DNA of 43,464 bases from Seison nebaliae (taxonomy: Eukaryota): the NCBI GenBank assembly GCA_023231475.1, contig JALJEE010000636.1:1-43464 (forward strand), in the 5' to 3' direction. Shown here piece after piece: positions 4,702-43,277 of this stretch; within the stretch, counting starts at the first letter, position 1; each line of letters opens with the position of its first letter. Below the pieces are notes generated by a model. The model searched no databases. It was given only the letters and a program-made list of their open reading frames with translations, and was not told where the DNA came from. Made by a program: the position numbers and the translations under genes.

Positions 4702-5829
4702 TCAAGTCCGTTTCGGTTTCATTTCATTCATACATGGTCGAATGTAAATTCTTGTCTTGTTTTTATTCGGATTGAAATGTTCGTAGCCCTAAAATAATAA
4801 GTTGATGTGAAATAGAAGGAAAAGATAGGAGATAACTTTTGACCAATCGTAACCAGAAGCGAAAGCTAAAACTCGACCAGAAGGATCGATTCCACATGCC
4901 GTTAATGGTTGATCATGTACTGGATCCGATCCCTTCAATTTTGCACGTGCATCTTTATCCCATAAATTGTATCGTCCATCTGAACCAATAGTACAGAAAG
5001 TGGATGTCAATGGATGGAAAGCGACACCATTGACCGCATATAAATGAATGTTCCGATCGTCGATAGTATTTCGATGACATTTGAAAGTAAAACATCCTTT
5101 CTGATTTGAAGGATCAACTAATTGAATAGCCATTCTCGCTTCGATACTTCCCAAAGCATAACCGATGGGATTCATTCGAGTTTGTGGAGATTCACGTGGA
5201 TCACAAAATATGGAAATACATCGACTTTGCATTCTCAACGGTGTTTGAATTGATGAATGTAATGTGGGTCTGGGATCCATATTAATGACGTGAATCTTCT
5301 TATCACTTGTCGCTACTACTCCCATATTATTGATGGCATCGGCACAATATGATTTACCTGACAAATTCAACGTTTCTAAGGGTTGGGGAGATCTTAAATC
5401 CCAAAATTTGACAGTTTGATCCCATGATGTTGTCATTAGACAATTGAATGTCGGTCGTTCTATCCAATGAACTGTACGGACAGGAGCTTCATGTTTCGCC
5501 ACTTCTACTAACTGATTGGATTGTAAGTCCCAAACTCGGCCACTAACGTCGCTTCCAGCGATGAAGATTTTCGTGCCATCATTATGCCAATTACAATGGA
5601 GCATCGGAATATTGGAGGGATTTGAGATCGATGATTTGGGGATGACTTGTCCATTTAAATTCAATTCCCATACACGAACATCTCCCGCCCATGACGTGGC
5701 CGCCATAAATAATTGATTCTCATTATAAGGAGAAAAGGAGAGTGAAGAGACTGTGTCTTCTGGAGCATTAGCCACTTCTATATCTCCTTCATTCGGATTT
5801 TTCGTTTGAGCGACTGTATTATTAAACAT
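4702..5829 (-). CDS. RAE1: mRNA export factor Rae1/Gle2 (WD40)
   Basis: Motifs DTVSSLSFS, TSWDQTVKFWDLR, FTFKCHR, GSDGRYNLWDKDARAKLK, FASGYDWSKG. ATG at 5829, intron 4836-4789 (GTT..TAG), last exon GYEHFNP...MKPKRT* ending at 4702. Confidence 0.95.
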
Positions 5830-6895
5830 TTCTAATAGAATAAAAAATAGTCGATTAGTATCTTCACAAATAACCAATATGTCTATCTAAATTACAAAAG
5901 AAATATGAAAAGACATTTTTATTTTGGCTTTGTAAAATTGGGAAAGTTTCATAATTTCTTTTATTTTTACGCAATTCCCTTCACTCGTTTACAGAGCTTA
6001 AATTTAATATTACCTAAATTATCATTCTTTAAGAATTTCTTTAACAAACTCCATTTACCAAAGTTATCATTAAATATAAACAATTTCAAAAAACTATAAA
6101 GAAATATATTTTCTAATACATATTATTATAAATTATTACATTATGTCGTTTAAATTTTAAATAAAAAATTTTGTATTACAAATTTATAAGAGTTGAAAAT
6201 ATTCTGATTACAATGTAAGTTTAATATCATTTCTCGAAATTCTCCAAAAATAATTGTAATTTCCTGCTACTACATATACACAAAATTTAAATTGTTAAAA
6301 AAAATGATTTGGGATCCATTATACTTATTTTTTCGTATTAGAATATACTTATTAGATGTAATAACAAATTAAAATTTCATAAATTTAGTTATTCAATATT
6401 GAATATATTTGAAACAATTTTGAATGAATTTTGAAGACAGAAATATATTTAATATTATCGAGATTGTAGTGAATTTCAAATTTAATCGCTTCTTTTAAAT
6501 TTCAAAAATTGTAATATTTAATCAAAATATTTAATCATTTAATTTTTAAAAAACTCATAGTTCGGGCGTTAAATTTGAATTTGAATCTTGTTCAAGTGAG
6601 AAGACAATTCATTTAACAACTATAAAAAATAGGTTACATCCATGTTACTTATAACATGTGTATTATTGTAGCACATGTCTATTCTCAAGTTCCTAGTAAA
6701 CATTAGTTAGTTCATTTCATTTCTTATCAAATAGTTACTTTGTAAGATTTAACAATGATTGTTTCGTATCTTGTAAAAAAAGATATTTAAAGATTTGTAT
6801 CTTTAATTCATTCCAAATATGGGAGATTATTGAGATGAAAGAATTATCGTGGTGATTTATGTCGTTAGTGTTTTTCAATTACGAATATTTAGATT

Positions 6896-6971
6896 AGTTT
6901 TATGATGAAAAAGTTCTGGAGTTACCGTATGATCTCATATGATTCCAACTGCGGCTATATGTCTGAAATTA
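6896..6971 (+). ncRNA. Box C/D snoRNA copy 1, snR77/SNORD65-like (18S Um in CGGUAAUUCCAG)
   Basis: C ATGATGA 6902-6908, guide CTGGAGTTACCG 6916-6927, D' ATGA 6929-6932, C'-like ATGATT, D CTGA 6963-6966. Lies 73 nt before the 3' splice site. Confidence 0.85.
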
Positions 6972-7127
6972 TAATTATTGATTAATGATACATATTATTC
7001 TTATACAATTTCATCAATTCCCTCTTCAATTCTTTTCAGATATATTTCGGCCATTTAATTTAAGATATTGTTTTCGATCGCATGAAGGAACGTTGTTAGT
7101 TTTTTTTATCTCATTTATACTTGTAAT

Positions 7128-7207
7128 ATGTTGTGATGAAAATAAATACTGGAGTTACCGTATGAATATGTTAATGATTCGAAATATGGCTAAATTTACT
7201 GAATTGA
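7128..7207 (+). ncRNA. Box C/D snoRNA copy 2, snR77/SNORD65-like
   Basis: C GTGATGA 7133-7139, same guide 7149-7160, D' 7162-7165, D CTGA 7199-7202. Lies 74 nt before the 3' splice site. Confidence 0.85.
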
Positions 7208-7372
7208 AATTTTTAAAAATTTTACGAAATTATTCTTCAAACAACTTTTATTCATAATTTTATTTTATTTTTATAGATTGAATAAGAATTCTCGACTTTG
7301 GATGTTTATTCTGATTAAATGCCAAATTGTTTACTTCTATGTTAGTTTACTTTCTTATTAATATTATTGGAA

Positions 7373-7454
7373 TTTGTGTGATGAAAAACAATGACTGGAG
7401 TTACCGTATGAATATGTTGATGATTATACAGTTCGGCAGAAAAAACTGATTTAA
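7373..7454 (+). ncRNA. Box C/D snoRNA copy 3, snR77/SNORD65-like
   Basis: C GTGATGA 7378-7384, same guide 7395-7406, D' 7408-7411, D CTGA 7446-7449. Lies 79 nt before the 3' splice site. Confidence 0.85.
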
Positions 7455-8005
7455 ATTAAGAAAAATTTTATTTATAAATCTCTTTCATTTCCTGTTTGAT
7501 GGTTAATTGATTTTTCCTTTTTTTCTAGATTTTTATCGATGAAATCGATGGTAGTGGTATTAATGGAAAATAAGTGACTGTTAGTGGAAATTTATTTCAT
7601 GAATTAGTGATACTATCCTATTATCGAGTATATTCTTAAACCTTATTCTTATTTATTACGGAGAAATAATCAATAAATATTGATCGATTTTTATACAATT
7701 TTCTTCCTTTTCCATTTTTCAGATTTTGTGAAGGAAAATGTCTTGGAAAGGAATATATATATATATGGAATAACGTGAAACAACTTCCACTTGGTCCGGT
7801 ATACGATATATGAAATTAATCTTTTATATTTTCAACAACTTTTAACAGAATAAAAATTATGATTCTTTATTGATAGTGTGCGTGATATCCTTCATTATGC
7901 ATTCATGCAATCTGATATGTTCACATCATCGTCTATTTAGGAAGAGAATAACTTTAAGCTATTAGTTGTCCATGTCGAGAGAAAGATGAAAGGAGATTAC
8001 TATTA

Positions 8006-10200
8006 ATGTTGTGGAAGAAATTCTTAAAATTTGTTAGTTCAAAAATAAAAAAATATTTCAATCGGAAAGAAATGGAATCGTCATCGATGAATTTTGATGG
8101 TTATCCACTCCATTATGAATCGATGAGTGCCGTGGATGATGAAGTGAAGAGGAGAAATCATTTGATAGACAATCTGATGATAGAAAGTCATTTGGCATAT
8201 CCCATCAGCAAATACATTTCAAATTCATTAAACGTTTTTTCCAATTTGTAATTTGTTAAGAAATAAATTAAATTTTGAAAGAAACCATTTGAAGAAATAT
8301 CATTGTTGCTGAGATTTAGAACAGTAGCAAATTTGATTGTCATGTTATTGAGATTCGTCCAAACAATTTTAGCATACGCGAAGTTGATTCTCCTTTTCAT
8401 CTTCTTCATTAGTTTCATTCCATTTCTTAGACGATATTCACCAGATTTCGATAGTAAAACTTTCTCTATCGTCGGTCAGGATGTAATGATGACGGAAGTG
8501 GATAATGTATTAATCTTAGGCAATAATTTGACATTTAACGCGAAATTTTATCGAACCGATCCTCAAGTTCGAGTTTTTCATTTTCTCTTTTAACCGTTTT
8601 CCGATTGTGAAGTCCGTTTTCGATGACCATATTTCCCACGTCTTATCAATCGCTCCATGTCTCAGGAATGAGATTGACAATCATTTGTCATATGAAAATC
8701 TTAAAAAAATTTCATCTTTCAATCATTATCCCGAATTCATACAACGTCGACTCTCCAAAATTGTTTCACTTCAAAAGTTCATTTTTTCTTCTCATTTTCA
8801 AATTCAAAATTTTCAAATTCTCATTCAGATTAAATCGTGGACGAATCGTTCTGAGAGAGGGTCATGAAGCTGATTCATTTTATTTCATTAGTTGTGGTAA
8901 AGTAGAAGAGAGTATTAGTAATGAAAATGGAGAATTGATAGTTACCAGAATTTTGAAATCAGGAGATTATTTTGGTGTTTGAATTTCTCTAAAAATTTCA
9001 AATTAACATTTCTTTCAGGAAGAAGATGTTCTGATGAAACGTCGACGTCAATATACTCATACGACGTTGAATAATGTCGAGTTGATTGTGGTGAAAGGAG
9101 AAGAGTATGAGAAATTATTCATCATTCCATCACCAGTCGTTCGAACGGATTTGTGTTCGTTACACACAATTTATTTATTGGAAGAAAGAGAAAGGAGTAA
9201 ATCGAAAAGAATTGATGGTTTTGGACGAAGAGTGAATGAAAGGAAGAAATCTTTTTATAGTTATTCGTCAAATTCATCAGGATTTTCAGTCAATTCTCTC
9301 ACTGATTATCAAGAAGTTCCTGATTATTTGAAATATGTCAAGTTGATTTATCTTCCAATTATTTTTATTGATAAATAAATATTTAAATATAATCGATATA
9401 AAATTAGAAATTTGAAATATTTCAAGAAACTTCCATTAGAATTATTCATTGAAAATCGCGAGAAATTCTATGTTAATTATTACAAGTTAAGAAAATTTCA
9501 ATGAAAATTTTCCGTTTGATCGTTTTCTTTCTAGAAATGATTGTATCATCAATTATGATGTTTTCTCATCGAAATTCATTTATCTTTTGAGAAATGGAAA
9601 TGGTCGAATTATAAAAAAATGTGATAATTTCAGTGAAGAAACATCAGCGTGGAAATCGGCGTCAACTACAACAATTGAAGATCCGTCAAGATTAGAACGA
9701 TTTCCTTTTTTCGTTAAATTAGCAAATGTTTCATCTCATCAATTAATAGTTAAAATTTTTTAAAATTTAATTTTCATCTTCATAATAATTTCTTTCAGAA
9801 TATTCATGATATTTGTTACGAGGAAACTGATAGTCCAAAATATGAGAAATGCATTTTCGTGAGTGAAGGATGTTTGTGCATTCTAGTGGAGAAGTCGTTC
9901 CTAGCTCAACATTTCGACACAAATATGAGAGAATTATTAAGGGCTGATTGTACACCTCTTCCATTCCTCTACGAATTCAACACTTCATTACGAGAAATTG
10001 TTGACTGGAAAGTTTACAAAGAAGATTTCATGAAGAATTGTCAATTGACGAAAAATTTAGAGAAAAGTAAATGTCCGAAGAAATTAATCCGAATTTCTGA
10101 TATTGAGACGATGTTAGTTACTAACAATAATTTATCAATTTGGAAACAGAGAGAATTGGAAAGGAAAGCAAAAGAGAAATTATCAAATGAAATCAAATAA
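8006..10200 (+). CDS. Cyclic nucleotide-binding domain protein (CNBD1/CNBD2-like), about 9 exons
   Basis: cNMP-binding signature GRIVLREGHEADSFYFISCGKVE...LKSGDYFGEE...RRQYT, plus a second degenerate domain. Introns 8234-8281, 8383-8430, 8567-8612, 8777-8828, 8977-9018, 9342-9407, 9486-9534 and 9749-9798 give one continuous frame. Start codon uncertain. Confidence 0.8.
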
Positions 10201-10388
10201 TGAAATTTGTATTCATAAAAAATTTTAAAGAATAATTATTAACTGTATAAGAAAATATTGAAAAAATATCGATGAAAAAAAAAAGATGAATTTTTAACAG
10301 AAATTTAACATAATTTTTTTTAATATTTTTCTCATCATCACAATTGAATTGTTGATTAGAATAAATATAAAATTTTTTTTGTAATCCA

Positions 10389-13300
10389 TCATATGAATGG
10401 TGCCCATCCATGGAACATTTTACTTAAATTGTCATAACTCGTCGCTTCGTCGATGAGATGTTGAATTAACTTTTCTGATGGAAATTCGATTGATGATAAT
10501 TGTTTATCTATTTTTCCATTTAATCGATTCTCTACATTCGTCACAAATTCTTTCGCTAATTCATTGCCAATCGTTGCGACATTATTCGTTTGATTCCTTC
10601 CTTTTTTACTCTTCCAACCGATACAAGGATCATAAATAAACGATCGAAGAATCGTTAGAATTGCGTCGTCATTCTTTTCCATCAATTCAAATGTTCGTTC
10701 AGCTGTCGATCGAAATATTCCGTTATAACCCGTACATCCAAAAGCGTCCACTAAATTATGTGTCAAACGAAATGGAACACATTCCGGTACGGGTAAATCA
10801 TTTGCCTTTAAAAATGAAAAATAAAAAAATGAGAAATTTGAAAAATAAAAAAATGAGAAATTTAAACGGCATTAAACATACAACTAAAATCCACATGAAT
10901 CACTTGACCTGTCACTGTATCTAAGAGAATGTTGGCTAAATGACGATCGCCCAAACCACCGATATATCCCATAATCGAAGTAACCGCACATGTATAAGTG
11001 AATCGACAACGGAATGAATACCATTTTTTCGGATCGTCAAATAATTCGAAAAACCAAATCGGTAATTGTGAGGGGAGGAAATGTGGGAGAACTTTCGTCA
11101 AAAATTCTATTTTTCTTTGTCTTTTTTTTAGTTAAATTTTTCAAATGAGAAATTTTATTAGAAAAATAAAATGAACTTTTCAGGTTTTCGTTCCAAATCC
11201 GTCATTCGCATAGCTCCGAAACTTGTCGCATTTGGTATTCCTACATCCAAATATTTTGCGTCCAAAATCGTTTTTAACGTTTTCAAATTATAGATCCATT
11301 CAATTAATCCCGAATTATGATCTATAAATATCACAGCCTTTCGAATATAATTAAATTTATAAAAATTTTTTAATTTAATTTCATTTAACATAGACACGGA
11401 GTGAGAGTGCTCGTTTTCGACATTCATCGTCTCGTTGGAAGATTTCATTCATCATATAATTCACTTCGATTTGACGATGATCCGTTCGAATACCTTCATC
11501 TTTCTTACATAAATAAGCGTACTTGTTTCCGTCACTCCCAATAAATTTGATACGTTTCGGTCGAGCTAAAGACGAAAGGACACTAAACTTTTGATGAAAA
11601 AATCGAGAATTAAAAATTTGAATAATAAAATTGTAAAACTTTCTCTTCGACTCCATTTATATAAATGGGATTACTTAATGGATGTGTCAATTGATGGAAA
11701 TTAGGAATTATTATTTCCGGTAGCCAACTAAAAAGATGGAAAAATTTGAAACAAAAATTTGAAAGAAAAATTTTAGAAAAAATTTCCAACGAAAATTTTA
11801 GAAAAAATTTTATAATAAATAAAATAAAAAATAGAATATTTAGTATAGTGTGGAATAAAACCTTCGGTTTAATGATTTGTAAATTTTTCCGAATTTGACT
11901 TCCATCGAGAATTGTCGCGCAGCAATATCAGATATTGCTAGTTGTTTCAGATGTTTACTAATCTCATAAATATTTAAATGTTCTTGTTTGATTTGTGGAT
12001 GTTTTTGTCTTTAGATAAATTAGGAAAATAAAAGAAAGTATTGAAGAAACTAACATTAATTTGGTGAGAATTGATTGTTGTCGAGTTTTGATGAGGGTGA
12101 TCTTCGAATAATTCAAACTGACACAAAGCCAAAGAGTTTGTTGTGTCATTTCTTTGTATAACTTTAAAATGAAATGATAGAGAAGAATTTTGAGAGGTTT
12201 GAACATTTATGAAACTTTCGACATATAAATTGCAATCACTTCAAAAACTCGATGTAAGGGGAATTTGAAGCGAGAATTGAGAATGGAAACTGAATGGATA
12301 ATTGTAGTTGATGGTATTGAGTCGATTTGTTTCAAGAAGATATCACGACAATCAACGAGAAATTTGTATTGAGGGAAATTTATTAATCGTTGTTCTTGTC
12401 CTTTCAAATCCATAACGAGCGTTTCTTTCAATAATACATCCGTTTCTAATTTCTCCTGAATGAATTCTTCGGCGATTTGGAAGAAGATGTTGAATGCTTT
12501 CATAATACAATCTTTAGCGAACGTATCTGATGTGATGGATAATGCTTCACAATAATTTTTTATTCCATTCAAATAATATGTACTTGGAATTAAAATAGAA
12601 ATTGTGAACAAAAGGAAAAAAAAATGAAACTATTTCTCATCTTTACAATCTGATTCTTCATAAATTCGTGCGATCTTCTCGTGATATTTAGCAAAAATAT
12701 ATTTCGTCTCAACATTCTTCCGATCCATATTCACTGCCGATTCATATCGATGGAATACTTCATCGAAATGACAATTGGACAAATTACTCATATAATCACC
12801 AAGGAGAATGTGAATCTATTTTAAATATTATTTAAAAATACAATTTTATTTGAGATTATTTGTAAACTTGAGAAATTTGTTTGGAATATTCTTCATCTTT
12901 TAACATTTCTTCTGTTATCTCCTTCTCGATACGTCCCAATTCATTTTTCAATAAACTTATTGCTTCATTTTTTTTATTCTGAAAAAATTGAATAATTTCT
13001 AATTTTAAAGAAATTTTTCAAAATAAAATGGAACTTGACTGAAATAACATTTGGCGATTAGAATTGATTTTTTCAAGAGAATAATTTTCGAATCCGATCT
13101 GATATTTCTCAATTTTTTTAAACATAATTCCTGATGATTTGACAATCGATAACTTTCACTTAATCTCAATTGTGTTTCACCTAACTGAAATTGAATGAGT
13201 TGACTAGTCTCGTTCGATTCTCTCAAACAAATGAGAAGACATTCATGAACATTTAATATCAATTGTCGACTATACATAGAAAGTGGGAGATGAGAAGATC

Positions 13301-16300
13301 GATAATTCCAAGTGGAAAATAATTCCTTCAAATTCTCTTCCTTCTTCTCTTCAATTGTTGATATTGTATCAAATAATTTCATATCATAAATCAAATGAGA
13401 ATTAATGAGTAATTGTTGATGAATAGTAATATATTTTTGATCGAAATTTTCTAATTGAGAATTTTGAAAATCGAATAAAATTCTCGTTTTCCATTCTTGG
13501 AAAATATCTTCTTTTTTCTTCACATTTTCTTTCTTATAATAAATTTGAATTAATTTTCCGATTATTATATCAATGGAGGGATTGGTTATACATTGGAAAT
13601 TCTCTTTGAGTAGATAAGGAATATTATTTGATTGCCATGTTGATCGAATGAATTGTGAATAGAGATTAGTGGAATTTCTGGTGAAGGAGACGGCGATCGC
13701 TGAACGTTCGGATCTGATGAGACAATCAGCTAATAATGATTGAATTGTATCGATAGTTTTATAATTTCTTTCATTTTGTAATCGATTATCGAACCAATCA
13801 GTTAAGTCATTAAAATTTTTCACTTTGAGAACGAGGAAAGAAGGAAAAATTTCTTCAGTTTCCAAATGATCATCATCAATGGATGTCTGATGAATTGCGT
13901 CATATTGATTAAGTGACGAATAAATTTTATATAAATTCACTTCATTCATTCCATCCTCCTCCATTACTATTCCATCCCAACATTTGAATTGGAAAGTGGT
14001 GAATTTGAGACGAAGAATTTTAGATTGAATCCATCCACTAAAATAATGTGTGCCCAATAGATGAGTGAAATGGAAATGAGACCAATTCATTCGACTTCGT
14101 AATTTTTCAAAAATCATTTTATGATATGTCTCCAGAACACGTTGACGACAACCCAATTCATTGAAATATAATGCTAATTCATAATTGTGGATGTGGAAAG
14201 CGGATTTCATTAACAAATCCAATGGAATTCCACTCACAAATTTGGCGATTCGGATGAAAATTTTCGATTGAAATTGTCGTTGAAAAATACGAGAATATGG
14301 TAATACTTTATCATCTTCATTCCAAATCGTTTGTAATTTACGAGTATCATCTTTTGCTTTACTTTCTCTTCTTATCCATTTCAAATGGAAAAGAAAAGTA
14401 TTTTGGACCATTCGAATTTCATCAATTTTCTTCATATGATCCCACTCTAAAATTGAACTTAATTTCTCTCGAATTGAATCGATATTTTCATCCGATACAT
14501 ATGACGATGAAAGAAGATGAAAAAAAGAATATGGAAATATAAAATGGAAAAATTTCAATTCTTCTGACATCAATACTACTGTATCATTCAAGATGAGTTT
14601 AAACGAATCACTACTATCAAATAAATCGATGTATTCCAATACATAATCTTCCACTTTCTGCGAATCATCTACTTCGAATTGGGATGTTAATAACGGAAAT
14701 AATTCATCCCAATCATGTACATTTCTTTTTAATTCATTCAATTTCAACTTATCATCATTCATAAGAGCGTCATGATATCCGAAATCTTTCAAAATCTCTT
14801 GAATCGAATAACGTGCTAAATATCGAACATTAATTGAATTATTCTGATAAGATTCTTCAATAAGAAAATTGAGAATTTCTCCCAAAATTTCAGGTGATTC
14901 ATTCAAATTTTCATATGAATGTAAATATGGAAATTTTTCCATTTCCATTTCCACTTCTTCCGTCAACTCTTTTACATTTTCTCTCACACTCATTTCCATA
15001 TATCCGATATGTCCGATCGTTTCAATTGCATGAAATTTGGTCGATTCGTCCATTCTCTCCGAACATAATTCGACGAGACGTTCATGAATTTGATGGAATT
15101 CCATCGAATATAAATTATCTTTGTCTAATTGAAATTGATGTAGTGATTCCATCAGATATGTCATGATATGTTTATAAATCTTTTCATATTTCCGATCGGT
15201 GAGAATGGAGAGAATTGTACGTTCAAGAATTGATTGTGGAATTTCCAAATGTTTCATCAACTTCTCTAAATAACAATCGATTTCTTTCGTCCATTTGATC
15301 AAATGAAATTGAATTAGACAATTCCTCTCCAATTTCTTCCAATTATTTTTCAAATAATCCAACAATAATTCATAGACAATTCCAAGATTGGGTTGAGTAA
15401 AATAGAAATTGGCTGAATAAAAATATTCAAAAATGAAATTTTCCGAATTCTCTTCAAATCTAACGAGATATTTTCCAAATAATTCCCACAATTCCAAAAT
15501 CTCTTCCGTCTTTTTTTGAGATGTCAATAATTGTAAACATGAAAATAATTTACCTTTTGAAATTAAATTAAATTCATTCTTCTCATCTAAACGAATGAGA
15601 GATGAAAGTGAAAAAATCACATAATCTTTCCCATATTCACAATCACCAACGACCACCGACACTAAATGAATGAGAATTGCTGAGAAATTATATTGAAGGA
15701 ATTTGACGATATTATCTCGATTCTCTTCGATTGTATTTGATGAGAGTAATTGGAAGAAAATATAAATGATCTTTTCATTAAATTTAATGTGAAGAATTAA
15801 TTCTTGGAGAATTGGAATGAAATATTTTTGAATGATTTGCACGAAAGAAATCATCAATAACCGTTTGATGATTAATGGAATTCGATCGAATTTCGATTTA
15901 TTTGAAATAATCAAATGAATTAATGATCTCATGAACCAAAATGATAAATTTGAAATCGATGTCTTCAACATAAAAATGCATAAAATATATCGAATTAGAC
16001 TCTGATTTCCATCTGTCTCACTCAACAGAAACATCGACAATTCATTTAACAGATAAATCGATTGACGTTCCATTGAGTAGAGAGTTAAATAAATTTTCAA
16101 ATTTCTCCAATACTCTTCCACCGTCACGAAATGTTTATTGAAATTTAAGACGATTAATAAATCCGTTAAATTTTCCGTTTGATGATAAGGTAATTTTTTG
16201 AAATCATTTTCGAATTCATATTCATGACAAATTAATAATTGACGTTCCATCGGAATATTCCATTGGAATCTCTTCAATTGTTCCTTCGATATTTCCTCAA

Positions 16301-18113
16301 TCGATTTCTTCTCGTTTTGACGGATTTGATGGAATGAAAATTTCATATCGGAAATTATCAATTGTGCAAGAAATGGAGAAATGTTTTTAAATAATTCTTC
16401 AGTTGATTTGAATTGCCATCGATCTTTTAATTCATCGATTAGACTCATTAGATAGAATGAAATGAATTGACATTCTAATCTCTCGAAACGTTCATTCGTC
16501 ACATGAAGTTGATAAGTTGTCAAATAATAATGGAGAATATAATGAAGAAATATTTGAACTACAAAGAAATTGGAGAATGATAATAAAATTAATCGAATCA
16601 TTCTCAATTCTCTCTCCAATTTCTCTAATTCGATTTGATCACCATATTTTTTGAGTTCTCGATGAAAATTTGCGAAAATTTTCATTTGACGCAATTTTAT
16701 ATTATCCAAATTATCATCAGATGATTTCGCCATATCTTTCAACGTTTCCTGAAATTTTCGTTTTGATATTATCCAAATAAATTTAATGGAACATAAAGAA
16801 TTTGTGGAATTTCGATCTCGATTTAATTCATCGATTCTGGAAATTATTCCAAATAATATCGGTAGGAAAATGAGAATTTCATTAAATTTCTTCTCTTTCA
16901 CAATCATTTCATTCTCCATATTATTATCCTTCTTCTTGATTAGTAACAACATTTTTATTAATTTCAAATTTATTCGATTCTCCAAATTCACCGAAAATTC
17001 ATTCAATTTTCCAATTAATTTCCTGATGAGATTTTCATTCTTTTCTTTTTCAAATAGAATATCGAGAATTATTGATTGAAATAATTGAAGAATCGATAAT
17101 TGATTAGAGAAATCGATAAAATTCAAATTTTTTGAAAACAATTCCAGGAAACAATCAATTGAATAAAATTTTTGATTAGTTGAAAAACGATCGAAATTTG
17201 AAGTTAAAAGAATTTGAACAATTCTCTCGATCGTTTCATCTTTCTCTAATTTACATTCCATTTCAACCGTTTCTGATTCAGATGAAGATGTTGAAAGATG
17301 AATTTGGAAATATTTCTTCTTTTCCATTTCCACATTAACACACATATTTTCATCTTCCAATAAAACGAAATCAATGAGAATATTGGAAGAATTATCGAAT
17401 TTATTCTTCTGAAATTTTGAGACATATCTCAATTCTTTTTGGATAACTGTCCGATTTCTTATTAGTAGAATGAGATGAATTATTGAAAGTGAATATTTCT
17501 CTTGTAACATTTCCAGTAAATTGTTCATTAAAAAATGGATTAAATCATCTCGGTAAAAGTGAACGATATTCGTCAATCGCATAATGAAATGAAGAAGAAT
17601 TCCATATCTCTCCTCCCCAACCATCATCCATTGATCTAATGAATAGATTGTGAGTAAACGGAAATAAAGAATTGAATCTATTTCTAATCGATGAAGACAT
17701 TTCAATAGTAAATAATCGAATGCAAATCGATTAGGAAGTGTGGACCATTCATTCTCCAAATTCTCAAAATCATTGTCCAATTGAGAATTTTGGGAGTTCA
17801 ATAACCGTTTTATCCATTCATTTTCATTCGTGACTAATTGATGATAAATTCGTTGTATTCCAAAATGAATAATCATATTAGCAATTTCTTCACTTTTCTC
17901 TGTTCTTTCCGAAAGGAAAAGCTCATGCAAATAATTTATAATTCTCTCAAATCTCTTCTCATTATTTCTCCCTAATGAATTCTTTAATTCCTCCAAAATA
18001 TTATCATCACTCAACTCAATATCAATTATTCTACGACGTTTCTCACACGACTCATTCGACGAACCATCATATAATCGACGATGTTTCCCTTCGGTCGTTC
18101 TTCTGGAACTCAT
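10389..18113 (-). CDS. ATR: Serine/threonine PIKK kinase ATR, 11 exons
   Basis: Motifs LSSLARPKRIKFIGSDG, GLGDRHLANILLD, HVDFSCMFN, VPECVPFRLTHNLVDAFG, and FATC end LIDEATSYDNLSKMFHGWAPFI*. First exon is ~5.1 kb (18113-13035), followed by 10 short GTT..AG introns that restore the frame. Confidence 0.9.
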
Positions 18114-18672: not shown

Positions 18673-19461
18673 ATGACTTGGAAAATTAGTGATTGTCGTA
18701 AGATTTATGGAATTGGTAAAAATTTCGTGTTAATATATTATTTAAGTTATTGAAGTTAATTTGAACGAAATTTACAGAGGAAGTCCGAAGGAACTGAGTA
18801 AAGAAACACCTCCACCTCCCATTATATTTATGAAACCAAATACAGCATTGATTGAGGAAAATGAAAAGATAAAAGTTAATTTATAATTTAATAATTGTTT
18901 AGTGCGAATTTGATTAGTTGCCGAATGATTCGATTGAATTACATCATGAAATCGAACTGGGTGTTATTATTAAGGAGAAGATTCCATTCAAAACATTTGA
19001 TGACAGATCAATGAACAAATACGTTAAAGGATATGTACTTGCTTTAGATATGACGGATAGGAATGTTTTGAAGAGATTATTAGACAATTCCCATCCTTGG
19101 CTATTAGCTAAAGGTTTCGATAATGGATGTCCCGTCTCCAAATTTATCGATTATAACAAAGTTAGATACCATACAATATGTTTATGATATAATCATTAAA
19201 AAGATTAAGAATACGAACAACGTTCAATTAAAGTTAAAGATCAATGGGAAATCACAACAGGATGGAAATACAGAATGTATGATCTGGAAAGTGAAGGAAT
19301 TAATGAAATATCTTAATCAATTCTTTACTTTGGAAGCGAATGATCTCATTCTCATGGGAACACCCGAAGGAGTATCTGCAGTAAAAAGTGGAGACGAATT
19401 ATTTGGTGAGATGTACGAGGATAATAAATTAATAACTTCAATGAAATTCTTTCTTGAATAA
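18673..19461 (+). CDS. FAHD1: Fumarylacetoacetate hydrolase domain protein (FAHD1-like)
   Basis: Motifs KIYGIGKNF, PIIFMKP, LHHEIELGVII, GYVLALDMTDR, PWLLAKGFD, DLILMGTPEGV. Introns 18729-18777, 18875-18917, 19161-19203. Confidence 0.9.
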
Positions 19462-21335: not shown

Positions 21336-21490
21336 AGAAAATCAAAGTCTGCGTGACTCTTTTGTCCCATGGCTGTCTTTTCCGTGGCTCTTTTGTCCGG
21401 GGCTCTTTTGTACCGTGACTGTTTTTTCCGTGGCTATTTTGTACCGTGGCTGTTTTTTCCATGGCTATTCTGTACCGTGGCTGTTTTTTC
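21336..21490. repeat. Second copy of the 172-300 element end with a ~16-bp tandem array
   Basis: AGAAAATCAAAGTCTGCGTG leader identical to 172-191, followed by GTGGCTNTTTT.. units. Confidence 0.8.
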
Positions 21491-21495
21491 GGTAT

Positions 21496-30219: not shown

Positions 30220-30319
30220 TGTTACTACTCATGTAAAGGTATGCGGAAATTCATTACCAGGTGAACGGAAAATAGTCAACATCAACACAATACCGATATT
30301 CTCATATCATATTCACAAC

Positions 30320-31976
30320 ATGCAAATTGATAAAGAATGGATTTTCCAAAAAACAGGACTCTCCTCAGAGAATAGCGGTTTGGTCTAGTTTCTTCGAGTT
30401 TCACTTTACTTTTTTCAATGTAGAAAATGTCAAGTGTCTTTCGTTGCCTGGTTCTTATTTGGAGAAGATTGAAGATTTAGGACAGTCGCTAGAATCGTTC
30501 TCTCGCATAAAAGAATTGGACCTCTCAAACAACTCCATCCAAAATTTGACAGTTTAATATTTTCTATTTTATTTCGAAAATTCATTGGGGGGAAAAGTCT
30601 CTTGGTAGTTTGGAATATTTAGAGAAACTAAATTTATTTTATAACAACATCCGTCATCTGAATGAAATAAAGAAATTAAATAAATTGAAAAATTTAAGAG
30701 AACTCGATTTGCGATTAAATCCAATTAACACATATGACAATTTATATCGGAAGAATATTCTTCGCTTAATTCCTTCACTTCAACTGTTAGACAATCGGGA
30801 AGTTACGAAAGATGACCGAATATTTGACGAAGAAGTTGATGAATTACTGACAAAAAATAGTAACAAATGGACCTCAAATGAGAGTAGTTTAGGAAAATAT
30901 GATAATTTATCTCCGAAAGTATTAGAATTGGAGAAAAATGATCAAAAAGAAAATTCGATGAGAAGGGACGACATCAAATCGTTTCCAACAGAACGTCAAT
31001 TTGCTCCGAAAATTCCATCAAGAAATCCAACTGATAGCATTACTGATTACGATAATATTAATTTCATGACAATTGAGAAACCATCGAAGCATGAACGAAA
31101 AAAATTGGAGAACAATAATAATTTGTCAAAATATCAACGATGTAAATCGTTATATGATATCAATTATCGACCACATTTGTCAAATGTACAAGTAGTTTCC
31201 ACTAATCAAGATAAGAAGTTAAATGACGAAATATCAAACCAATTCACCTCAAACACTTTAGAGAAAACTGATTTAATAGATAGATCATATCGAATGACTA
31301 ATGGAATTTCAGATGATTCTTATTCAAATAATTTTTCATCAAGATATGACAATTCCCCATCATTCCATGAGAAGGATATTAATGGAAATGTTCTTCATAT
31401 CGATACATTAGAAAAAGATCGAGATAACCACCAGTCAATGAATAATCATTTGAATGATGATATTGAACATGATTCCTTTAATTCTTTTAATACGGAAAAT
31501 AGTGTTATCAAAATAATTTCCTTAATCGATCGATATTGGAAAGGAACAAACAGTCTCAATTCAAATCCTTCATTCATCAGTTAATATTATAAATTAATTT
31601 ATATTTTTAAAATTTTTTTTTAAAGATAAATTGGAAAAAGTTCTTCGACCGTTTGAAAAGCATGATCAAAATTTCAATGCATTTGATGTGCACAGAAATC
31701 ATTTGAATGATAATAATAGTTCTTCTCAATTATCAGCTTTCTTCTTCATTTTTCTAGTTATATCATTGGAAAACGAGAGATTAAAAAAAGAAATTGAAGA
31801 ATTAAGAAAAAAGTTGGAGGAGTCGAAGAAATACTCGAAACTTTCAACTATGTTGGAGGAGAGTCATCAGTTAGTAATTGATAAAAACGTTGAAAATTTA
31901 ATTCTGCTTCAGATCTTTAATCTCAACTAATGAACATTTATTATCCCAACTACTTCATTTTCAACGAATGAAATAA
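30320..31976 (+). CDS. CEP72: Centrosomal protein CEP72 (LRR plus C-terminal coiled coil), 6 exons
   Basis: Motifs LSLPGSYLEKIEDLGQSL, LNLFYNNI, LDLRLNP and a C-terminal LEESH-x-SLISTNEHLL. Introns 30378-30423, 30552-30597, 31580-31625, 31719-31757, 31870-31912. Confidence 0.88.
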
Positions 31977-32433: not shown

Positions 32434-33579
32434 TTAGCTGGTGGAGAAGGAATTTGGTTGTTTGCACGAAATATTTAAGAAATGTACACAATTGTTATCA
32501 GTTGCGGAGATAAGTTTATGTTGGAGGAATGATGAACATTTTACATCGATCGAATTAATAGCGAGTGGTAAGGGAGGAATCAGATGTGACGGTGTAACAG
32601 TTGCATCTCCAATTTCCCAAATGAAAAGTAAACCATCTTCTCCACATGAATATAAATGGTCGGAATTAGCGAAACAAATATCCCAGACACAATCCTTATG
32701 TCCATGAGAATTATTTGTACCGAGAGTGGTGACAGGTAAGTCCAATTGTCGAATGTCGAATAAATGGATGGGACCGGTCATTGCTGCTACAGCCATTAAA
32801 TTCGAATTAATTGGATGTACATCGAGTTTAATAAATGCATCTTTTATAATATTTCTATCCAATTGATGATATTGATTTGGTCGATGGAATTTTTCACTAG
32901 TTCTTTGTCGTTTATCAAAAACTAAAATATTTCCGTCATTATTTACACCGTAAATGATGAAATTATTATCATTTGAATAATGAATGTCGTTAATGGAACA
33001 AGTACATTTCACACCATTCTCATCATTCTCTTTCCATTCGTGAATAACATTTCTTTGTCGAAATAAATCTAAAACTTTTACTTGACCGTTCACTCCGGAA
33101 CAAACTGCCGTATCCTCCACCAATGGAGATGTGGCAATCGCTTGAACACAACAACCTTTCATCATATTAAAATAATATTGATCATCATATGTGAGTGATC
33201 GATCGACATTTTCAAATGAGAATAATTTTGACCAATAAGAAATCGTATCGATAACTCCTGATCCGTTATCACCTTTTCCAATGGAGAACAAAGTAACCGA
33301 ACCGTTCGTTGAACCAGTAATACAAAAATCACCATTACCTAACCAATTCATACATCGGACTCGACCTGAGTGTGAAGCTGAAGATAATTTATCAAGGAAT
33401 TCTTCATTTTCACTCATCTCCCACAATGTCACTTCACTCGCCTCCGTCCAACTACCTGTTAATATTCTCCTCTCATTCAGCTTTGGAGACCATTTTATTT
33501 GATGAATTATATCTTTCGTTGTATTTGTTTGCACTTTGTTAATTTTAAAGAAATCATTCCCACCACAATCCTCCTCCAT
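32434..33579 (-). CDS. NUP43: Nucleoporin Nup43 (WD40)
   Basis: IKW-P..LTGSW..VTLW, HSGRV..TGSTNGSVTLF, VHP..FDIRQ, HLYSCGEDGLLFIW, LAINSIDV..ATDN follow the Nup43 pattern. Intronless. Confidence 0.8.
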   Translation of the reverse strand: MEEDCGGNDFFKINKVQTNTTKDIIHQIKWSPKLNERRILTGSWTEASEVTLWEMSENEEFLDKLSSASHSGRVRCMNWLGNGDFCITGSTNGSVTLFSIGKGDNGSGVIDTISYWSKLFSFENVDRSLTYDDQYYFNMMKGCCVQAIATSPLVEDTAVCSGVNGQVKVLDLFRQRNVIHEWKENDENGVKCTCSINDIHYSNDNNFIIYGVNNDGNILVFDKRQRTSEKFHRPNQYHQLDRNIIKDAFIKLDVHPINSNLMAVAAMTGPIHLFDIRQLDLPVTTLGTNNSHGHKDCVWDICFANSDHLYSCGEDGLLFIWEIGDATVTPSHLIPPLPLAINSIDVKCSSFLQHKLISATDNNCVHFLNISCKQPNSFSTS

Positions 33580-34968: not shown

Positions 34969-36546
<1,578 letters not shown>

Positions 36547-36694
36547 TTCATTGAATGACATAAATAATTCTTTTATTAATTTCTCTATTGGAAAATGGAA
36601 TTACTTCATAATATTTTATTAATGACTTTTGGCTATTCCTTCCCACTCTCTACAATCACGTCACCTGATAATTTGAATAATTAACATAATTTGG

Positions 36695-36865
36695 AATGTT
36701 TGGGAAATTGTAAAATTATTCATGTGGGATATTTCGCACATGGGAATTTATTCATCTGGGACATTTGGTATATGGGAATTGATTAATTTGGGACATTTGG
36801 TCAATTGGAAAATATTAATTTGGGACATTTGGTACATGGGAAATAATTAATTTGGGACATTTTAC
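36695..36865. repeat. ~32-bp minisatellite (TTAATTTGGGACATTTGGTACATGGGAA-like), about 5 degenerate units
   Basis: TGGGACATTT recurs at ~31-32 bp spacing, alternating with ATGGGAA. Confidence 0.75.
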
Positions 36866-37798
36866 AATTAATTTTATTTGGCATTTTACAGATGCAGAAA
36901 TGAGCCGTACAAACGAATCTGTAAAATAATTCTTGTTATTTCGTATCATCAAACGTCTATGTATTTGATTTTTGAAGATTTAGTAATTTTTTGTTGGAGA
37001 AGTATTGAAAAATATTTTGATAAAATAAATTTTTTTCTTCAAATTTTTTATTTCTCTCATTTCTTCCTGAGTCTCGTTGACATTCTTTTCAATATCAGTC
37101 CTCCTTAAATTTGCTTATATTCTCGATTACTGTCCGCTTCTTAAAACGAATTAAATTATCTAACAGTCTTTCACCAAATTATTATTGTCAAATAAAAATT
37201 GTCAATTTCCTGATAATTATTAAAGGCTTGTTTATGAGTTAGATAGATAATTTAATTCATTTTCAGCACTACAATCTAATCATGTTTATTTAATATCATT
37301 TCCTTTAAATATCTCATATGTAAATAAGTGTTTAGGAAGGAAATTTCTCGTTTTGACCTTTCCCCTTTGTCCAACATCTACATGTTGAGTAGATACAACA
37401 ACAAACAGAGTACAAGTCGTCTCTGTTGTGAGTTCATGTATATATCTGTTCTAATATAACTTTAAATTTATTTGGAGAACATGAATTTTATTAGTAGATA
37501 ATCAATCAAGAGTAGATAAATACTTAGAAAGTGGGGAAAGTTTTTAATAAATTTCCTTCACGCAAACACAAACAATCTCATCTTTTCCTACTTACAAAAA
37601 CGATCTAAACATCCTTCGAATTTTTATTAGATTTTTAATGGAAAAATTTTAGGGAAATTAACGAAATTATTCCAAATAAAAACGACATTAATTTGTTGAA
37701 GAGGAATTGCCTCTATCGTTCTAATTCGGAATTCTTATGCTCCTAAATATGATATTACTATGACAATGATGCATCATTAATGCAATTCATCTTCCAAT

Positions 37799-39940
37799 AT
37801 GATACGTATTTTCAAACTATCCAATATTTCCTTTTACCTTAAGGAACTATTAGAAAAGATTGGATTTCCTTTCAAAATAATTGTACGTCCAAAGAGAATA
37901 TCATATTATCTTCTAACTATCATCATATTAGTAGTGTTGTTGAATTATTATAATTATTCATCAGTCAATCATATACACATTTCCCACTTATCAGAACATG
38001 GTTAATTTCCGTAATCTTTCTCGTGTTTAATTTACCGTCATCGTCTAGAATTTCCATGTATCAATAACGAAGAAAGTTGTTGTTTGCCTCAAATGAAAGA
38101 ATATGATAAATTATTCAATCATCTTCTTATCAATTTAAGATCTACTTCCAATTGTCCATCTTCAAAACCTCCTCCAATTCAATTGATTCATGAAAAATTT
38201 ATTTATAATTATCCATCTGATTGTCGATTAATTGAAGTTATTTTTAAAATTATATATTAAAATATCAAAATTTTTAGATAACTCAAAATAGTAAAGATAC
38301 TTTCCAGTACAAAAGGTCAGATGGAAAAAAATATGAAAATTATCAGGAAATTGATTGGAATGACTGGGAGCGAATAGAAAATGGAAGTAGAATCAATGTA
38401 GAATCGGAAGTGATTCAAATTGAATGCAAGAAGAGAAGCCAAATAATTTTCCATAAAATCTTTCCAAATATTTATAAAAAATTCAATCGACGAACTCATA
38501 GGAAGGATGAAAAGAAGTCAAATATTATTTTATTAGGAATCGATTCGATTTCCCGATTGAGTTTTCGAAGATATTTAAAGAAATCTTTCAATTTTCTAAT
38601 GAAAGAATTAAATGGAATCGAATTTAAGAATTATCATCGAATAGGTAAAACTTCGATATCGAACATATTTCCATTATTAACCGGTTATTCTACACGAAGT
38701 GCATCTTATAAAAATTATTCAAAAAATTTAAAATTTGATCAATTTCCATTATCTTTTTTCCAACTTTTTACCACATCTCATTTCACTTTATATACCGAAG
38801 ATTGGCCTCGATTCAATACATTTAACTATCTACAAAATGGATTTGAAAATGCTTCGTCTATTTTTTCATTATATTTCCGTCCTTTCTGGTTGGCGGTTGA
38901 GCGAGAACATTTATTAAAATCTCAAAATTATAATTGGCACGAAAACATCATTCGACCAATTCAAAGTTTTTTCAATGATAAACTTCAACGCTTCACCATG
39001 ATTCAACCAAGTTGGCGTGAACATTGTTATGGAAATCGATGGAAATTCCAAATCCATTTCAATATCGTTTTGGAAGCGCTACATCGTCTTCGAGAAGAAG
39101 ATTTAGGAAATGGATTATTTTTCGCATTCCTCAACGAAATAGCTCATGAATATCCATATGCTGTTCAATTAGTCGATGATCATTTATTGAAATTCCTTAA
39201 AGATTTTAAAGAAAATAAATTCCATCAAGACTCTTATCTCATATTGTTTAGTGATCATGGTAGTAAATATGGAAAATTTCGAGAAACATATCAAGTTTTC
39301 TTTCTTTCCTCTTTTTACAATATCTCATGTTTAATTAAAGGGATTTCTAGAAAGTTTACTTCCCACATTAATTATCGTTCCTCCCAAAAATATTGAACAA
39401 GAAAAATTGGAGAATTTGAAAAATAATCAAAAATTAGGAAAATTTCTTAATCTTTTTGACGTCCACGAGACTATGAGGGAATTACTCAATGTCACAACTT
39501 CAACTACTCGAGACGTTATTGGTACTTCATTAATATCGAAACTCATTCCAGTTCAACGACAATGTGCCAATTTCTCTATTGAACCATCTGAATGTGCATG
39601 TCAACGCATAATGGAGGAAGATTACCAGAATTGTCAAAATATTAAATTGACAAAATTATTAAAGACGATTCATTTAGATTTTGGAAGAAAATTGATTGGA
39701 AGTCAATGTAAGAAAGTGAAGTATCGATCTATTCAAATCGAACATGTGAAATTCCTTCCTAAAAAACAAATTTGGTTAATGATAGGTAAAGTTTCGAATT
39801 TGGATATTCTCTTCGAAGTCCAATTGACTTGTCATCAGTTTTATAATCGGTTACCATTGACCATTAATCGCATAAATAAATATGGTAATAATTCCTGGTG
39901 TACTAATAATTATTCGTTGAAACATATTTGCGTGTGTTGA
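37799..39940 (+). CDS. DUF229 family protein (alkaline phosphatase/sulfatase superfamily, type II membrane), 4 exons
   Basis: N-terminal TM segment, LGIDSISR, NIFPLLTG, FSDHGSKYGKFRETYQG..E..LP and a C-terminal RINKYG..C..CVC. Introns 38001-38048, 38237-38277, 39295-39340. Confidence 0.88.
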
Positions 39941-40090
39941 GAATGACAATTGTTTTTTTTTTAATCCAATCACTTTTTATTACGATCTCTTATAATCTTT
40001 AACATAACAATGTTGGTAAGCTAATGGTTGGTGCTAACAAAATGGTTATCAATAAATTTAACGACCTATATGACAAGTTATGAAAATATA

Positions 40091-40374
40091 GGGTTATTCA
40101 TTTGGTTATAGACCTTTATTCGGATTTTGAGGACTTTAATTTATTTCATTCGGACTTTTATTCATCGGATATAGATTTCTATTCATCAACTAAGGACAAC
40201 TGGTCATTCAATCTGGATATCTATTCATTTTCTAACGACTAATATTCAGTATTAATAAAGACAACTATTCATCGTGAACGGACTACTATTCATCCCTTAT
40301 GCACCATTATTCTTGTCATCCGGACTTAAAGTCCTCAAAATCCGAATAAAGGTCTATAACCAAATGAATAACCC
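40091..40374. mobile_element. MITE with perfect 49-bp terminal inverted repeats
   Basis: 40091-40139 is the exact reverse complement of 40326-40374. Flanked by TATA on both sides, with internal TATTCATC subrepeats and no coding capacity. Confidence 0.9.
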
Positions 40375-40906
40375 TATAACTCAAACTTCTTTTTACCAAT
40401 TTATTAGTAGAAAATTTTTAAGAATCCTATCAAGATCTTTCTCAATTGACAAACATTCATTAATTATATAAAATTATATTTGATTATTATAATTAAATTT
40501 TGTTCATTTATTCGAAAATTCTTTTTATATTCCAAAAAAAAAATAAAAAATTATTTCTTTTTATTATAATAAATATTTATAATCGTAATTACTTCTATCT
40601 AAAATTCTTTCTATTTGAAGAATTATTATTGATAAAAAATTAAAAAAATATTTTTTTGAGAAAAAGTTCGAAATGTCGAACATATTATTAAGAATTGACT
40701 ATGGAAACACAACTGAAATAGAATTGGGTGACTTGATTGATTTTTAGATAAGGAAATTGTTTAATAAAAATTTATTATTAGATTAGATTATTAGAATTCA
40801 TTGTAAAATGTTCAGATAAGAGATAAAATTCGAACAGTTTTTCAGATTCATAAAATATTCGGACAATATTTTTTCCTAAACTCTTTTCATTCACATCAAC
40901 ATTATC

Positions 40907-43277
40907 ATGGAAGAACGTCATAGTACTCATGCTTCGAGTGACGTGCCGAAAGCTGAATTTGAATCGTTTAAATCATTTCGTTTGAAACGGAAGAATAATC
41001 AGGATAATGGAGTACTACCGATATCATATGCAGGTGAATCATTTGCTCAGTTGATAGATTTGAAGATAAAAATGAGTCAACAATTGAAAGATATTCAAAC
41101 ACGACTCTATGATTCCCCACCATTCGGATCGAACGAACGTTTAACAAAACAATTTAGGAATAGTCTGGCTCCTCTCTTTCTCACACCTTCGATAACACCA
41201 GAATTTGTCATTCCGCCCACATTGAAAACATTGCAAGATAGAATCTCTCTTCGATTTCCAAATCATTATCAACCGAGATATGCTTTTCGGGATGAGGAGA
41301 AGAATGATATAAAAATTGATGTGAGTAAAATTTTGACAGATGAAAAAGAAGAGATGAAAAATGAAGAAATTGAGGGAAATCAATTGAAGATAACATCATT
41401 TGTTCGATCGATTGGTCGTATGATTGGAAGTCGAATTGGATCACATCGAGCTTCTGAAGTAGAGACGAGAGACGTTATTGCTTTGAATACGGAGAATGGG
41501 AAACCGATAAATTTTCCAACGATTCATGTAACTGAATGGAAGAATAAGAATAAAAATGATGATAATATGGATGAATCACGTAGTATGATTATGTCATCAA
41601 ATGGAGATAATTTAATGGATCAATTAAATGTAAAAAAGAAATTTTATTCTTTACTCGACGTTTCCACACATCTCTATCAATTGACATATTCAGGAAATCG
41701 AGATCGATGTGAAACAACGAAAGAATTTCGTCAAACGTCCAGATGTTCACTTTGTGAACATACTGGTATTGGTCAGACGATAAAGAAATCTATTAAACGA
41801 AATCGACCATTATTCAAATTCCTCATAACACCACAACTACAAATTTTAGATAAACCGATTTTGTTCAAATGTTTCAAAAATGATTCATCACTCAATCAAA
41901 TTTCATCTTTGATCTCTATCGAATTAGATATCGGAATCGAATTGAAATGTATCAATTTCGACAGTTTCGTAGCAACACAACATTTCGATTGTTTTAAGAA
42001 AAGTTGTTTCGTTCGTTTATTACAATGTCGTCATTCGATTTTATCGGAATTAATACCCAAATTACTAGTGATAACATTCGAACGGAAATGTGTTCCTCAT
42101 AAGAAGGGTAGATTGGAACGGCAAATTTTCGCTTTACCAAATGCTCAAGATTATTGTACTCAGAAATTTCTGATTGATAATGAGAATTATCTCTTCTCCA
42201 ACGATTTAATGGCAAGATTCGATTTGATTACTGAAGATACGATAAAATTTTCAAAAATTTTAGTCGAACTCGTTTTCTTCAAAGAATTAAAACAAACAAA
42301 AGTGAACACATCAAATTGTTCAGATTCGGAGAAAAATAAATTTGGCGGTTCTCCCTTTTCTATTTATGATATGGAGAAAGAGAAATCTTTCTTTTCTGAA
42401 ATGCATCATCATCGACAATGTACTTCGTATGGACAATTTGATAAAACTTATCAGAATTATATTCGACGATTGGAAGACATTTTAGAAAATAATTTAATTG
42501 TCGCATCAACGACAGTTCCATTAATGGAAAATAAAGAATATGGGTCAACTATTCAATTAACCAAAAGTAATCGTCATATGTTCATTACAAAAAATTCGGA
42601 AATTCGTTTTCTTTCCATTAAAAATGTTAAATTTTCTCCATAAATTTTTCTTTCTAATTTTCAATTTTTTCAGACATCTCTCGAATTGATGAGAGAACAT
42701 TCGATTAGTAATAATAAACGATTTACTGATTCTACAACCTGCACCATCCGTTTATGTCGTTTCAACACTTTCATTAAAATTACGAAAATTTATATTTCAA
42801 ATTTAAAGAAACATCTAATATATGGAAAACCAGGTTCCGTATATTTTTTCGTCCTTTATTCATTCTTTTTTAGACACATTCCTCTTGATTCAAATTTATC
42901 ACAACAGAAAATTCAGAAACGAATTTCAAACATCTATTTGTATGGAAACATCGTCACCGCAATGGAGAGATGATATTTTAATTCCGATACAAAGTTTCGT
43001 TCACACAAAAATCGTCGTCAAATTATATGATTGTACGGTGACTAATATATTGTGGAAGAAATCGGACAGTATCGATGCAAGCATCTTGAGAAGAATTCGA
43101 AGGAAACAAATTAATTTAAACGACGCTCAGAAACTTTATAATTTCGGAAGAATTATCAAAGAGAAAACCGCCCTATTCTTAGGACAGATCAATATCGGAA
43201 AATCAGTACTCTCAAATCTATCACCTTGTAAGGCAGATAATAATATTTTGGAACTAACTAAAATATTAAGGAATTAA
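40907..43277 (+). CDS. C-terminal C2-domain protein, C2CD4-like, 3 exons
   Basis: LTPSITPEFVIPP resembles the C2CD4 N-terminal LTPxxIPEFxIPP motif. C2-like C-terminus (KPDTFLLIQI..QTSI..SSPQW..VKLYD). Introns 42626-42673, 42834-42873. Confidence 0.6.

Follow-up and report, generated by a model that had tools for sequence, protein, structure and literature searches.

Do the introns of a seisonid rotifer all begin with GTT, and if so, which part of the splicing machinery reads the third base? The question is raised by a stretch of 43,464 nucleotides (nt) of genomic DNA, called the window here, from Seison nebaliae, a tiny marine seisonid rotifer (Pararotatoria) with a compact genome of ~46 Mb and 32% GC (PMC8351084). 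A preliminary description had stated that all 39 coding introns of the window start with GTT. The same 39 introns were obtained when each gene was rebuilt (Rae1, 1; a gene with a cyclic-nucleotide-binding domain, CNBD, 8; ATR, 10; FAHD1, 3; a CEP72-like gene, 5; CK2a, 7; DUF229, 3; a probable C2-domain gene, 2). All 39 begin with GTT, and all eight spliced frames are open to the stop. GT..AG termini are found in 39/39 introns, with GC also permitted during alignment for 17 of them. The T at donor position +3 is supported as being under selection, with donor recognition altered, and GUU is very probably a near-universal, selected donor across the Seison genome.

Homology fixes 19 of the donors, all of them GTT. 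Seventeen (CK2a 7, Rae1 1, ATR 8, DUF229 1) were placed by spliced protein-to-DNA alignment in which every GT or GC could serve as donor and every AG as acceptor, while +3 did not enter the score. Two in FAHD1 were placed by colinearity with PDB chains. At 8 of these 19 donors, an in-frame GTC or GTG alternative no more than 60 bases away was rejected by homology. CK2a (CK2 alpha; 34969–36546, forward strand) gave identical junctions with 3/3 homologues for introns 35064–35120, 35233–35289, 35392–35451, 35563–35712, 35797–35866, 36080–36132 and 36234–36278. The single intron of Rae1 (4702–5829, reverse strand), at 4836–4789 (GTTATC..TAG), likewise has an identical junction with 3/3 homologues; the deposited protein SNEBB_008507 is a 100% match to the Rae1 frame and equally 359 amino acids long. 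In the ATR kinase gene (10389–18113, reverse strand; PF00454, PF02260; an open frame of 2368 amino acids after splicing), donors at 12630, 12215, 12054, 11861, 11639, 11389, 11176 and 10867 were fixed with five distant homologues, one to five per donor, the two most upstream having one homologue each as support. The other two ATR donors, 13034 and 12867, are also GTT and were placed by frame logic. FAHD1 (18673–19461, forward strand; PF01557) has introns at 18729–18777, 18875–18917 and 19161–19203; the exon ends at the second and third align colinearly with 1nr9 and 6fog, and the first was placed by frame. In the DUF229 gene (37799–39940, forward strand; PF02995), the third of the introns 38001–38048, 38237–38277 and 39295–39340 is supported by 50/54 homologues, and all three are present in the deposited model SNEBB_008518 (P0127). 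The earlier assertion that homology settles the junctions holds for CK2a, Rae1, the eight ATR donors and FAHD1 introns 2 and 3, but not for FAHD1 intron 1; we also count the CEP72 LRR junctions as frame-based.

Some aligner calls were dropped. In poorly aligned parts of ATR, 5 of 37 calls were non-GTT (1 GC, 2 GTG, 2 GTC), each from a single homologue; single-homologue ATR calls with GTT that broke up open frames were dropped as well. Minor DUF229 calls (up to 13/54 homologues, with a GC donor) fall within an open frame. It should be mentioned that the species' own protein was absent from the matches of the ATR homologue search. A bacterial FAHD1 search yielded two loci, both spurious.

For 18 of the 39 introns, the boundaries were set manually on the basis of frames and stops, which makes them partly circular. 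Two more are stop-free segments with a length divisible by three that may be exon, 8383–8430 in the CNBD gene and 31719–31757 in the CEP72-like gene. The CNBD gene (8006–10200, forward strand, start uncertain; PF00027 and frame logic) has GTT donors at 8234, 8383 (the optional segment), 8573, 8777, 8977, 9342, 9486 and 9749. In the LRR gene at 30320–31976 (forward strand; LRR Pfam matches and frame logic), which we take to be CEP72-like from the preliminary description, they lie at 30378, 30552, 31580, 31719 (optional) and 31870. The probable C2-domain gene (40907–43277, forward strand) was assembled by frame logic, its C2 label being a lead only (Atlas 0.81), and its GTT introns 42626–42673 and 42834–42873 form the least secure pair. 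A crude ab initio parse that gave +3 no weight placed GTT at 37/49 calls over 13 regions, and at 36/45 within the eight genes; the non-GTT calls sit in long open frames, at gene ends, or 5–6 bases off a GTT donor. It recovered 6/8 of the CNBD donors and only the second of the C2 introns. Forbidding GTT cost this parse 11 units in FAHD1 and 6.5 in Rae1, and it was equivocal for CEP72 and DUF229.

Could the third T be no more than a by-product of T-rich introns, of boundaries placed by hand, of something peculiar to this locus or of errors in the sequence? Of all GTs in the window, 38.5% have T as the next base; the introns are 51% T, and 27 of their 38 internal GTs are followed by T. A reading without selection at +3 can also draw on the 20/39 boundaries that lack homology fixing, on the 9/45 non-GTT calls of the unbiased parse, on the C2 gene, where that parse went the opposite way and GTT was not favoured, and on the restriction to a single window. 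However, even under the harshest background (27/38) the probability of the observation is 1.6e-6 for 39/39 donors and 0.0015 for the 19/19 fixed by homology, so that base composition fails to explain +3T. The neighbours of +3 are not fixed, with T at +4, +5 and +6 in only 16, 11 and 15 of 39, and forbidding GTT costs 34–38 units in CNBD, ATR and CK2a, against 0–3 for a GTT-only parse. Sequencing data from public runs, described below, also stand against it. We consider the absence of selection extremely improbable.

Contigs of public runs, which behave as DNA and show no spliced joint, were aligned on CK2a 35121–36460 at 80% likeness. Three runs from two samples, one of them perhaps the source, contain the window's own CK2a sequence without a single difference. 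The runs also contain a second, diverged lineage at low depth (3–5) with the same CK2a intron positions; S. nebaliae is reported to comprise two nuclear genomes (PMC8351084). Among the differences listed, 25/25 exon differences of this lineage fall at third codon positions. The intron bodies are replaced, with 73 other letters in intron 2 and 47 in intron 4, and GTT is kept at 6/6 donors (introns 2–7). Alignments stop at +3 (35235, 36236) or +4 (35566, 35800), intron 3 first differs at +4, and intron 6 has lost two T of GTTTT with GTT retained. The second lineage is also characterized by a much shorter intron 4, and C/G is commoner at its third positions. A full-depth contig with a ~82% match to 35712–35762 was noted as well; it possibly represents a paralogous kinase.

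The positions of these introns appear old. In 118 CK2a homologues, long-indel ends, which mark skipped exons or retained pieces, lie within 2 amino acids of a Seison junction in 61/112 cases against ~12% expected, and all 7 junctions are matched. CK2a intron positions are therefore common to other species, indicating old introns that were converted in place. Introner-type recent insertion was considered and rejected, as the best intron–intron score of 46 compares with shuffled maxima that average 39.6 and reach 51, and the CK2a positions are old. Eighty metagenome CK2a loci gave single continuous matches that look intronless, and viral contigs offered no comparator. Among other rotifers, the donors of bdelloids may often have T at +3.

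What, then, is the signal at these donors? The introns are short (39–150 bases, median 48) and contain 5% G. The exon end is A-rich, with A at -1, -2 and -3 in 25, 24 and 20 of 39 against ~14 expected each (14.1 at -1; P = 4e-4, 2e-3 and 0.03), in agreement with the earlier remark that the last exon base is mostly A. From +4 to +10 there is no clear departure from background except a depletion of T at +5; at +4, A (15) and T (16 of 39) are near background. The donor signal is AA/GTT (the slash marks the exon–intron boundary), outside both classes described for human donors, AG/GUNNN and NN/GURAG (PMC11732430). A purine at +3 was found in 0/39 donors and an AG exon end in 3/39, which lowers the case for an ordinary metazoan donor and leaves splicing by the major spliceosome untouched. 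U12-type introns were rejected: a donor of the form RTATCCTT occurs in 0/39, and ZMAT5 is scored missing in Seison in the BUSCO table discussed below. Acceptors read TAG in 17, AAG in 14 and CAG in 8 of 39, with no GAG. No clear branch-point motif was found in the introns; YTRAY-like sequences occur in 20/39, a count made without a control. The -3 position of the acceptor looks relaxed, with AAG at 7/10 acceptors in ATR (10806–12979, reverse strand).

Duplexes between these donors and the canonical U1 end have a median of -1.6 kcal/mol; the consensus reaches -14.0 kcal/mol. Canonical U1 pairing does not rise above a null in which GTT is fixed (P = 0.18). A U1 model with three changes fitted best (P = 0.0005), but it was fitted post hoc and is given no weight.

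A candidate for the strong form of the donor comes from a probable non-coding host gene for small nucleolar RNAs (snoRNAs) at 6706–7722 (forward strand), recognized by clustered GTTAGT and snoRNA-like copies. GTTAGT occurs five times (6706, 6864, 7095, 7341 and 7580) in ~900 bases of the host sense strand, against 0.15 expected (P = 5e-7, in a region picked after inspection), and acceptor-like sites lie at 7039, 7276, 7528 and 7722. Three C/D-box snoRNA-like copies with a common 17-base guide were aligned within 6902–7449 (box C at 6902, 7133 and 7378; CTGA at 6963, 7199 and 7446). Their C boxes begin 38, 38 and 37 bases 3' of a GTTAGT. Each copy lies 73–79 bases ahead of an acceptor-like site, and they match Rfam snR77 weakly (32.9 bits, gathering threshold 50). 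The fourth intron-like stretch, 7580–7722, may contain a further small RNA. If the host sites are donors, longer introns use GTRAGT with +3 alone changed. This arrangement suggests that GUUAGU may be the donor optimum. GTTAGT is the exact Watson–Crick complement of ACUAAC.

The claim of an altered donor recognition is supported by the insufficiency of base composition, the 6/6 donors of the second lineage, the old intron positions and the apparent strong form GTTAGT. The major spliceosome has likely co-evolved to require the third U. U1 has about an even chance of being the changed partner. We rank it first because Entamoeba, the single lineage found described with a fixed +3U, has A at the corresponding U1 position and because GUUAGU matches ACUAAC. 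The pairing end of U1 would then read ACUAAC in place of ACUUAC. Since the introns are short and G-poor, their length and composition would supply much of the specificity. U1 would form only a short helix around AA/GUU, so that the +3 pair could not be spared, and longer introns would extend the helix to GUUAGU. At hand-over, the A-rich exon end would hold U5 loop 1, and +3U could wobble-pair with G44 of U6. Pairing at +4 to +6 would have largely lapsed, in line with the apparent loss of METTL16. The excess of A at -1 and -2 fits pairing with U5 loop 1, which carries the load when N6-methyladenosine (m6A) is absent from U6 (PMC8163875). The broader proposal has chances as good as not: that nearly all ancestral Seison introns were rewritten to an invariant GUU, while METTL16 was lost and a matching base changed in U1 or in the ACAGAGA box of U6. 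It would be the first genome-wide co-evolution of small nuclear RNA (snRNA) and splice site in an animal, with transformation decoupled from intron loss.

An unchanged U1 might also meet GUU in a register shifted by +1, pairing exon A with U10, +1G with C9 and +3U with A7. Such a register is known for rare human GUUAAGU donors. As the sole mode of recognition it would predict both +3U and -1A without any change of snRNA; it scores 4.85 pairs against 4.32 in the null (P = 0.0025), and +7T is present in 26/39 (P = 0.055). However, the -2C and +6G that it requires occur in 5/39 and 3/39 only, GTTAAGT is found at 0/39 donors, and its score comes largely from -1A, which U5 explains equally. The presumed strong sites read GTTAGT, that is, the unshifted register, which argues against the shift. 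We regard the shifted register as very unlikely.

The state of the splicing machinery can be judged in part from the BUSCO table of PMC12256650. In it METTL16 is scored Missing in the seisonid and present in the other 24 of 25 syndermatans; U5-40K, SPF45, LSm2 and ZMAT5 are also Missing in the seisonid, while PRP8, SNRNP27K, ZMAT2, PRP38B, SMU1 and SF3B1 are Complete. The target motif of METTL16 is UACAGAR. The enzyme methylates the U6 base opposite +4, and without it splicing leans on the pairing of U5 with the exon end (PMC8163875). The +3 base of the donor faces U6 G44 (PMC11732430).

These relations bear on a second explanation, in which U1 has kept its canonical form or plays no important part and the ACAGAGA box of U6 is what reads +3U. 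The box would do so through a required wobble between +3U and G44, U6 being unmethylated, or through Watson–Crick pairing after a change in the box itself. In the latter variant, A would stand opposite +3 and U perhaps opposite +4, and the motif targeted by METTL16 would disappear as well. One invariant base amid free neighbours resembles a core contact more than it does a U1 helix with additive pairs, and METTL16 is scored missing in Seison alone. Cyanidioschyzon merolae, without METTL16, has the box ACUGA (PMC8163875), and better pairing of +3U with U6 is a possibility raised by Roy and Bowser. A weak exon/intron seesaw is also seen, with -1A at 3/10 sites that have +5G against 23/34 without it (P = 0.04; five of the ten are presumed donors). 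Yet U6 ACA pairs at +4 to +6 are no more frequent than in the null (0.92 vs 1.07), and even U6atac retains the G that faces +3. C. merolae, which has no U1, retains +3A (PMC10158995), and the U6 of Entamoeba is canonical in the account of Roy and Bowser. We hold reading at U6 to be possible, though doubtful. It does not exclude a changed U1, and it better explains a single absolute base and a possible loss of METTL16.

Alternatively, GUU may be read by a protein, either a factor that is new or an altered version of U1C, LUC7, Prp8 or SNRNP27K. U1 might at the same time be lost or diminished, and intron length would supply what remains of the specificity. Canonical U1 can barely pair with these donors, and U5-40K and SPF45 are scored missing. 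SPF45 is linked to the splicing of short introns. Precedents exist in the loss of U1 in C. merolae, the divergent U1C of Entamoeba and the protein-level change in Fritillaria. Against this, PRP8, SNRNP27K, ZMAT2 and PRP38B are scored complete, U1 small does not appear as a row name in the BUSCO table, and a GUUAGU optimum suggests RNA pairing. Recognition by a protein is unlikely in our assessment.

Several observations weigh against a rewritten donor code with U1 as the changed partner. The sequence examined is one genomic window. The deposited model SNEBB_008518 has the same three DUF229 introns and, judged by eye, a matching CK2a protein. It holds one GTA intron, 36907–37931 (1025 nt), that joins CK2a to DUF229; this intron fuses two unrelated genes and is probably a misprediction. 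G at -1 is not enriched (7/39 vs 6.0 expected). G at +5, low as the preliminary description had reported although the count is 5/39 and not six, compares with 2.0 expected (P = 0.05). The pairing score of an ACUAAC U1 does not exceed a null with GTT fixed (P = 0.18), and the donor status of the GTTAGT sites in the snoRNA host is deduced from motif and position. The absence of METTL16 is a lead only and the call may be false, because ~356/954 BUSCOs (~37%) are missing in S. nebaliae and a genuine loss of LSm2 is unlikely. Loss of METTL16 elsewhere shifts +4 to U and leaves +3 alone; the Seison donors do not have such a preference, +4 being A about as often as U. Several lineages with odd donors also retain a canonical U1. 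An Rfam scan detected no snRNA inside the window.

Other features of the window were noted in passing. The same deposited model contains an exon at 36892–36906 that may be the genuine last exon of CK2a, preceded by a possible eighth CK2a GTT intron at 36536–36891 (forward strand) that is present in this model. ATR holds a single open frame of 1711 codons. A short frame at 40673–40906 (forward strand), 5' of the C2 gene and ending near a GTT site, may be an extra 5' exon; no in-frame join was found by eye. A SUN-domain gene (28277–29941) and a WD40 gene (32434–33579), both on the reverse strand, are apparently intronless. The long open frames at 22720–23679, 25387–26697 and 20301–21002 (all forward strand), which have no clear Pfam assignment, lie in a repeat-flanked block and are perhaps genes of mobile elements. 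Short tandem-like repeats with units of 15–40 bases were seen by eye at 181–300, 21340–21790 and 36740–36860, the first two with a common unit; they are possibly subterminal repeats of transposons. An inverted repeat pair of ~50 bases each, enclosing ~190 bases (about 40090–40140 and 40325–40375), resembles by eye a miniature inverted-repeat transposable element.

Few features of animal donors are as stable as the +3 purine, and descriptions of transformed donors come mainly from intron-poor protists and yeasts. Transformed donors as such are already known; the GTT donors of Seison appear to be undescribed for any rotifer in the literature found. The accessible text of that literature, including PMC8351084, PMC12256650, PMC7310846 and PMC10639083, gives no description of Seison or rotifer donors, with subscription papers and some supplements (PMC8351084, the bioRxiv preprint) outside this scope. 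If the proposal is true, a core pair of snRNA and substrate can be swapped without mass intron loss in an animal with thousands of introns, with GUU fixed at old positions. It would then bear on the question of 'selective loss' versus 'coevolution' posed by Roy and Bowser. One fixed base amid free neighbours, with METTL16 possibly gone, offers a natural experiment on whether the donor consensus is set by U1 or by the hand-over to U5/U6. Gene predictors trained on other animals may mis-model the lineage, as the fusion of CK2a to DUF229 suggests.

We have compared the Seison donors with known systems. In Entamoeba, GUUUGN opens 96.9–98.5% of introns and U1 has co-evolved to AACAAAC (Roy and Bowser, bioRxiv 10.1101/2022.06.08.495308). 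Seison is similar in its fixed, probably lineage-wide +3U (39/39 in the window and 6/6 in the second lineage), its GT-AG introns and its AT-rich genome. However, Entamoeba is intron-poor with a strict motif from +3 to +7, whereas Seison is intron-rich (39 introns in 8 genes) with only +3 fixed and +4A in the presumed strong form. The strict GUUUGU(U) is not seen in Seison, with +4T in 16, +5G in 5 and +6T in 15 of 39 and no GTTTGT donor. The shifts linked to METTL16 and SNRNP27K, and the division of donors into U5 and U6 classes (PMC11732430, PMC8163875, PMC11347140), are resembled in Seison by the apparent absence of METTL16, the A-rich exon end, the weak +4 to +6 and the hint of a seesaw. 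They differ in that known losses move +4 from A to U in intron-poor fungi, while Seison has a fixed +3, a free +4, A and not G at -1, and SNRNP27K scored complete. The larvacean Fritillaria borealis (PMC13326754) resembles Seison as an animal whose major spliceosome was re-tuned genome-wide, in its case with reduced U6 m6A. In Fritillaria, however, the GT/AG rule is relaxed and the U1 5' ends are alike, whereas Seison keeps GT-AG and tightens it to GTT. C. merolae, without U1 or METTL16 and with a U6 box of ACUGAGA (PMC10158995, PMC8163875), is a precedent for the combination of a changed U6 box, METTL16 loss and +4A donors, but it has only a few dozen introns and canonical GUAAGU donors.

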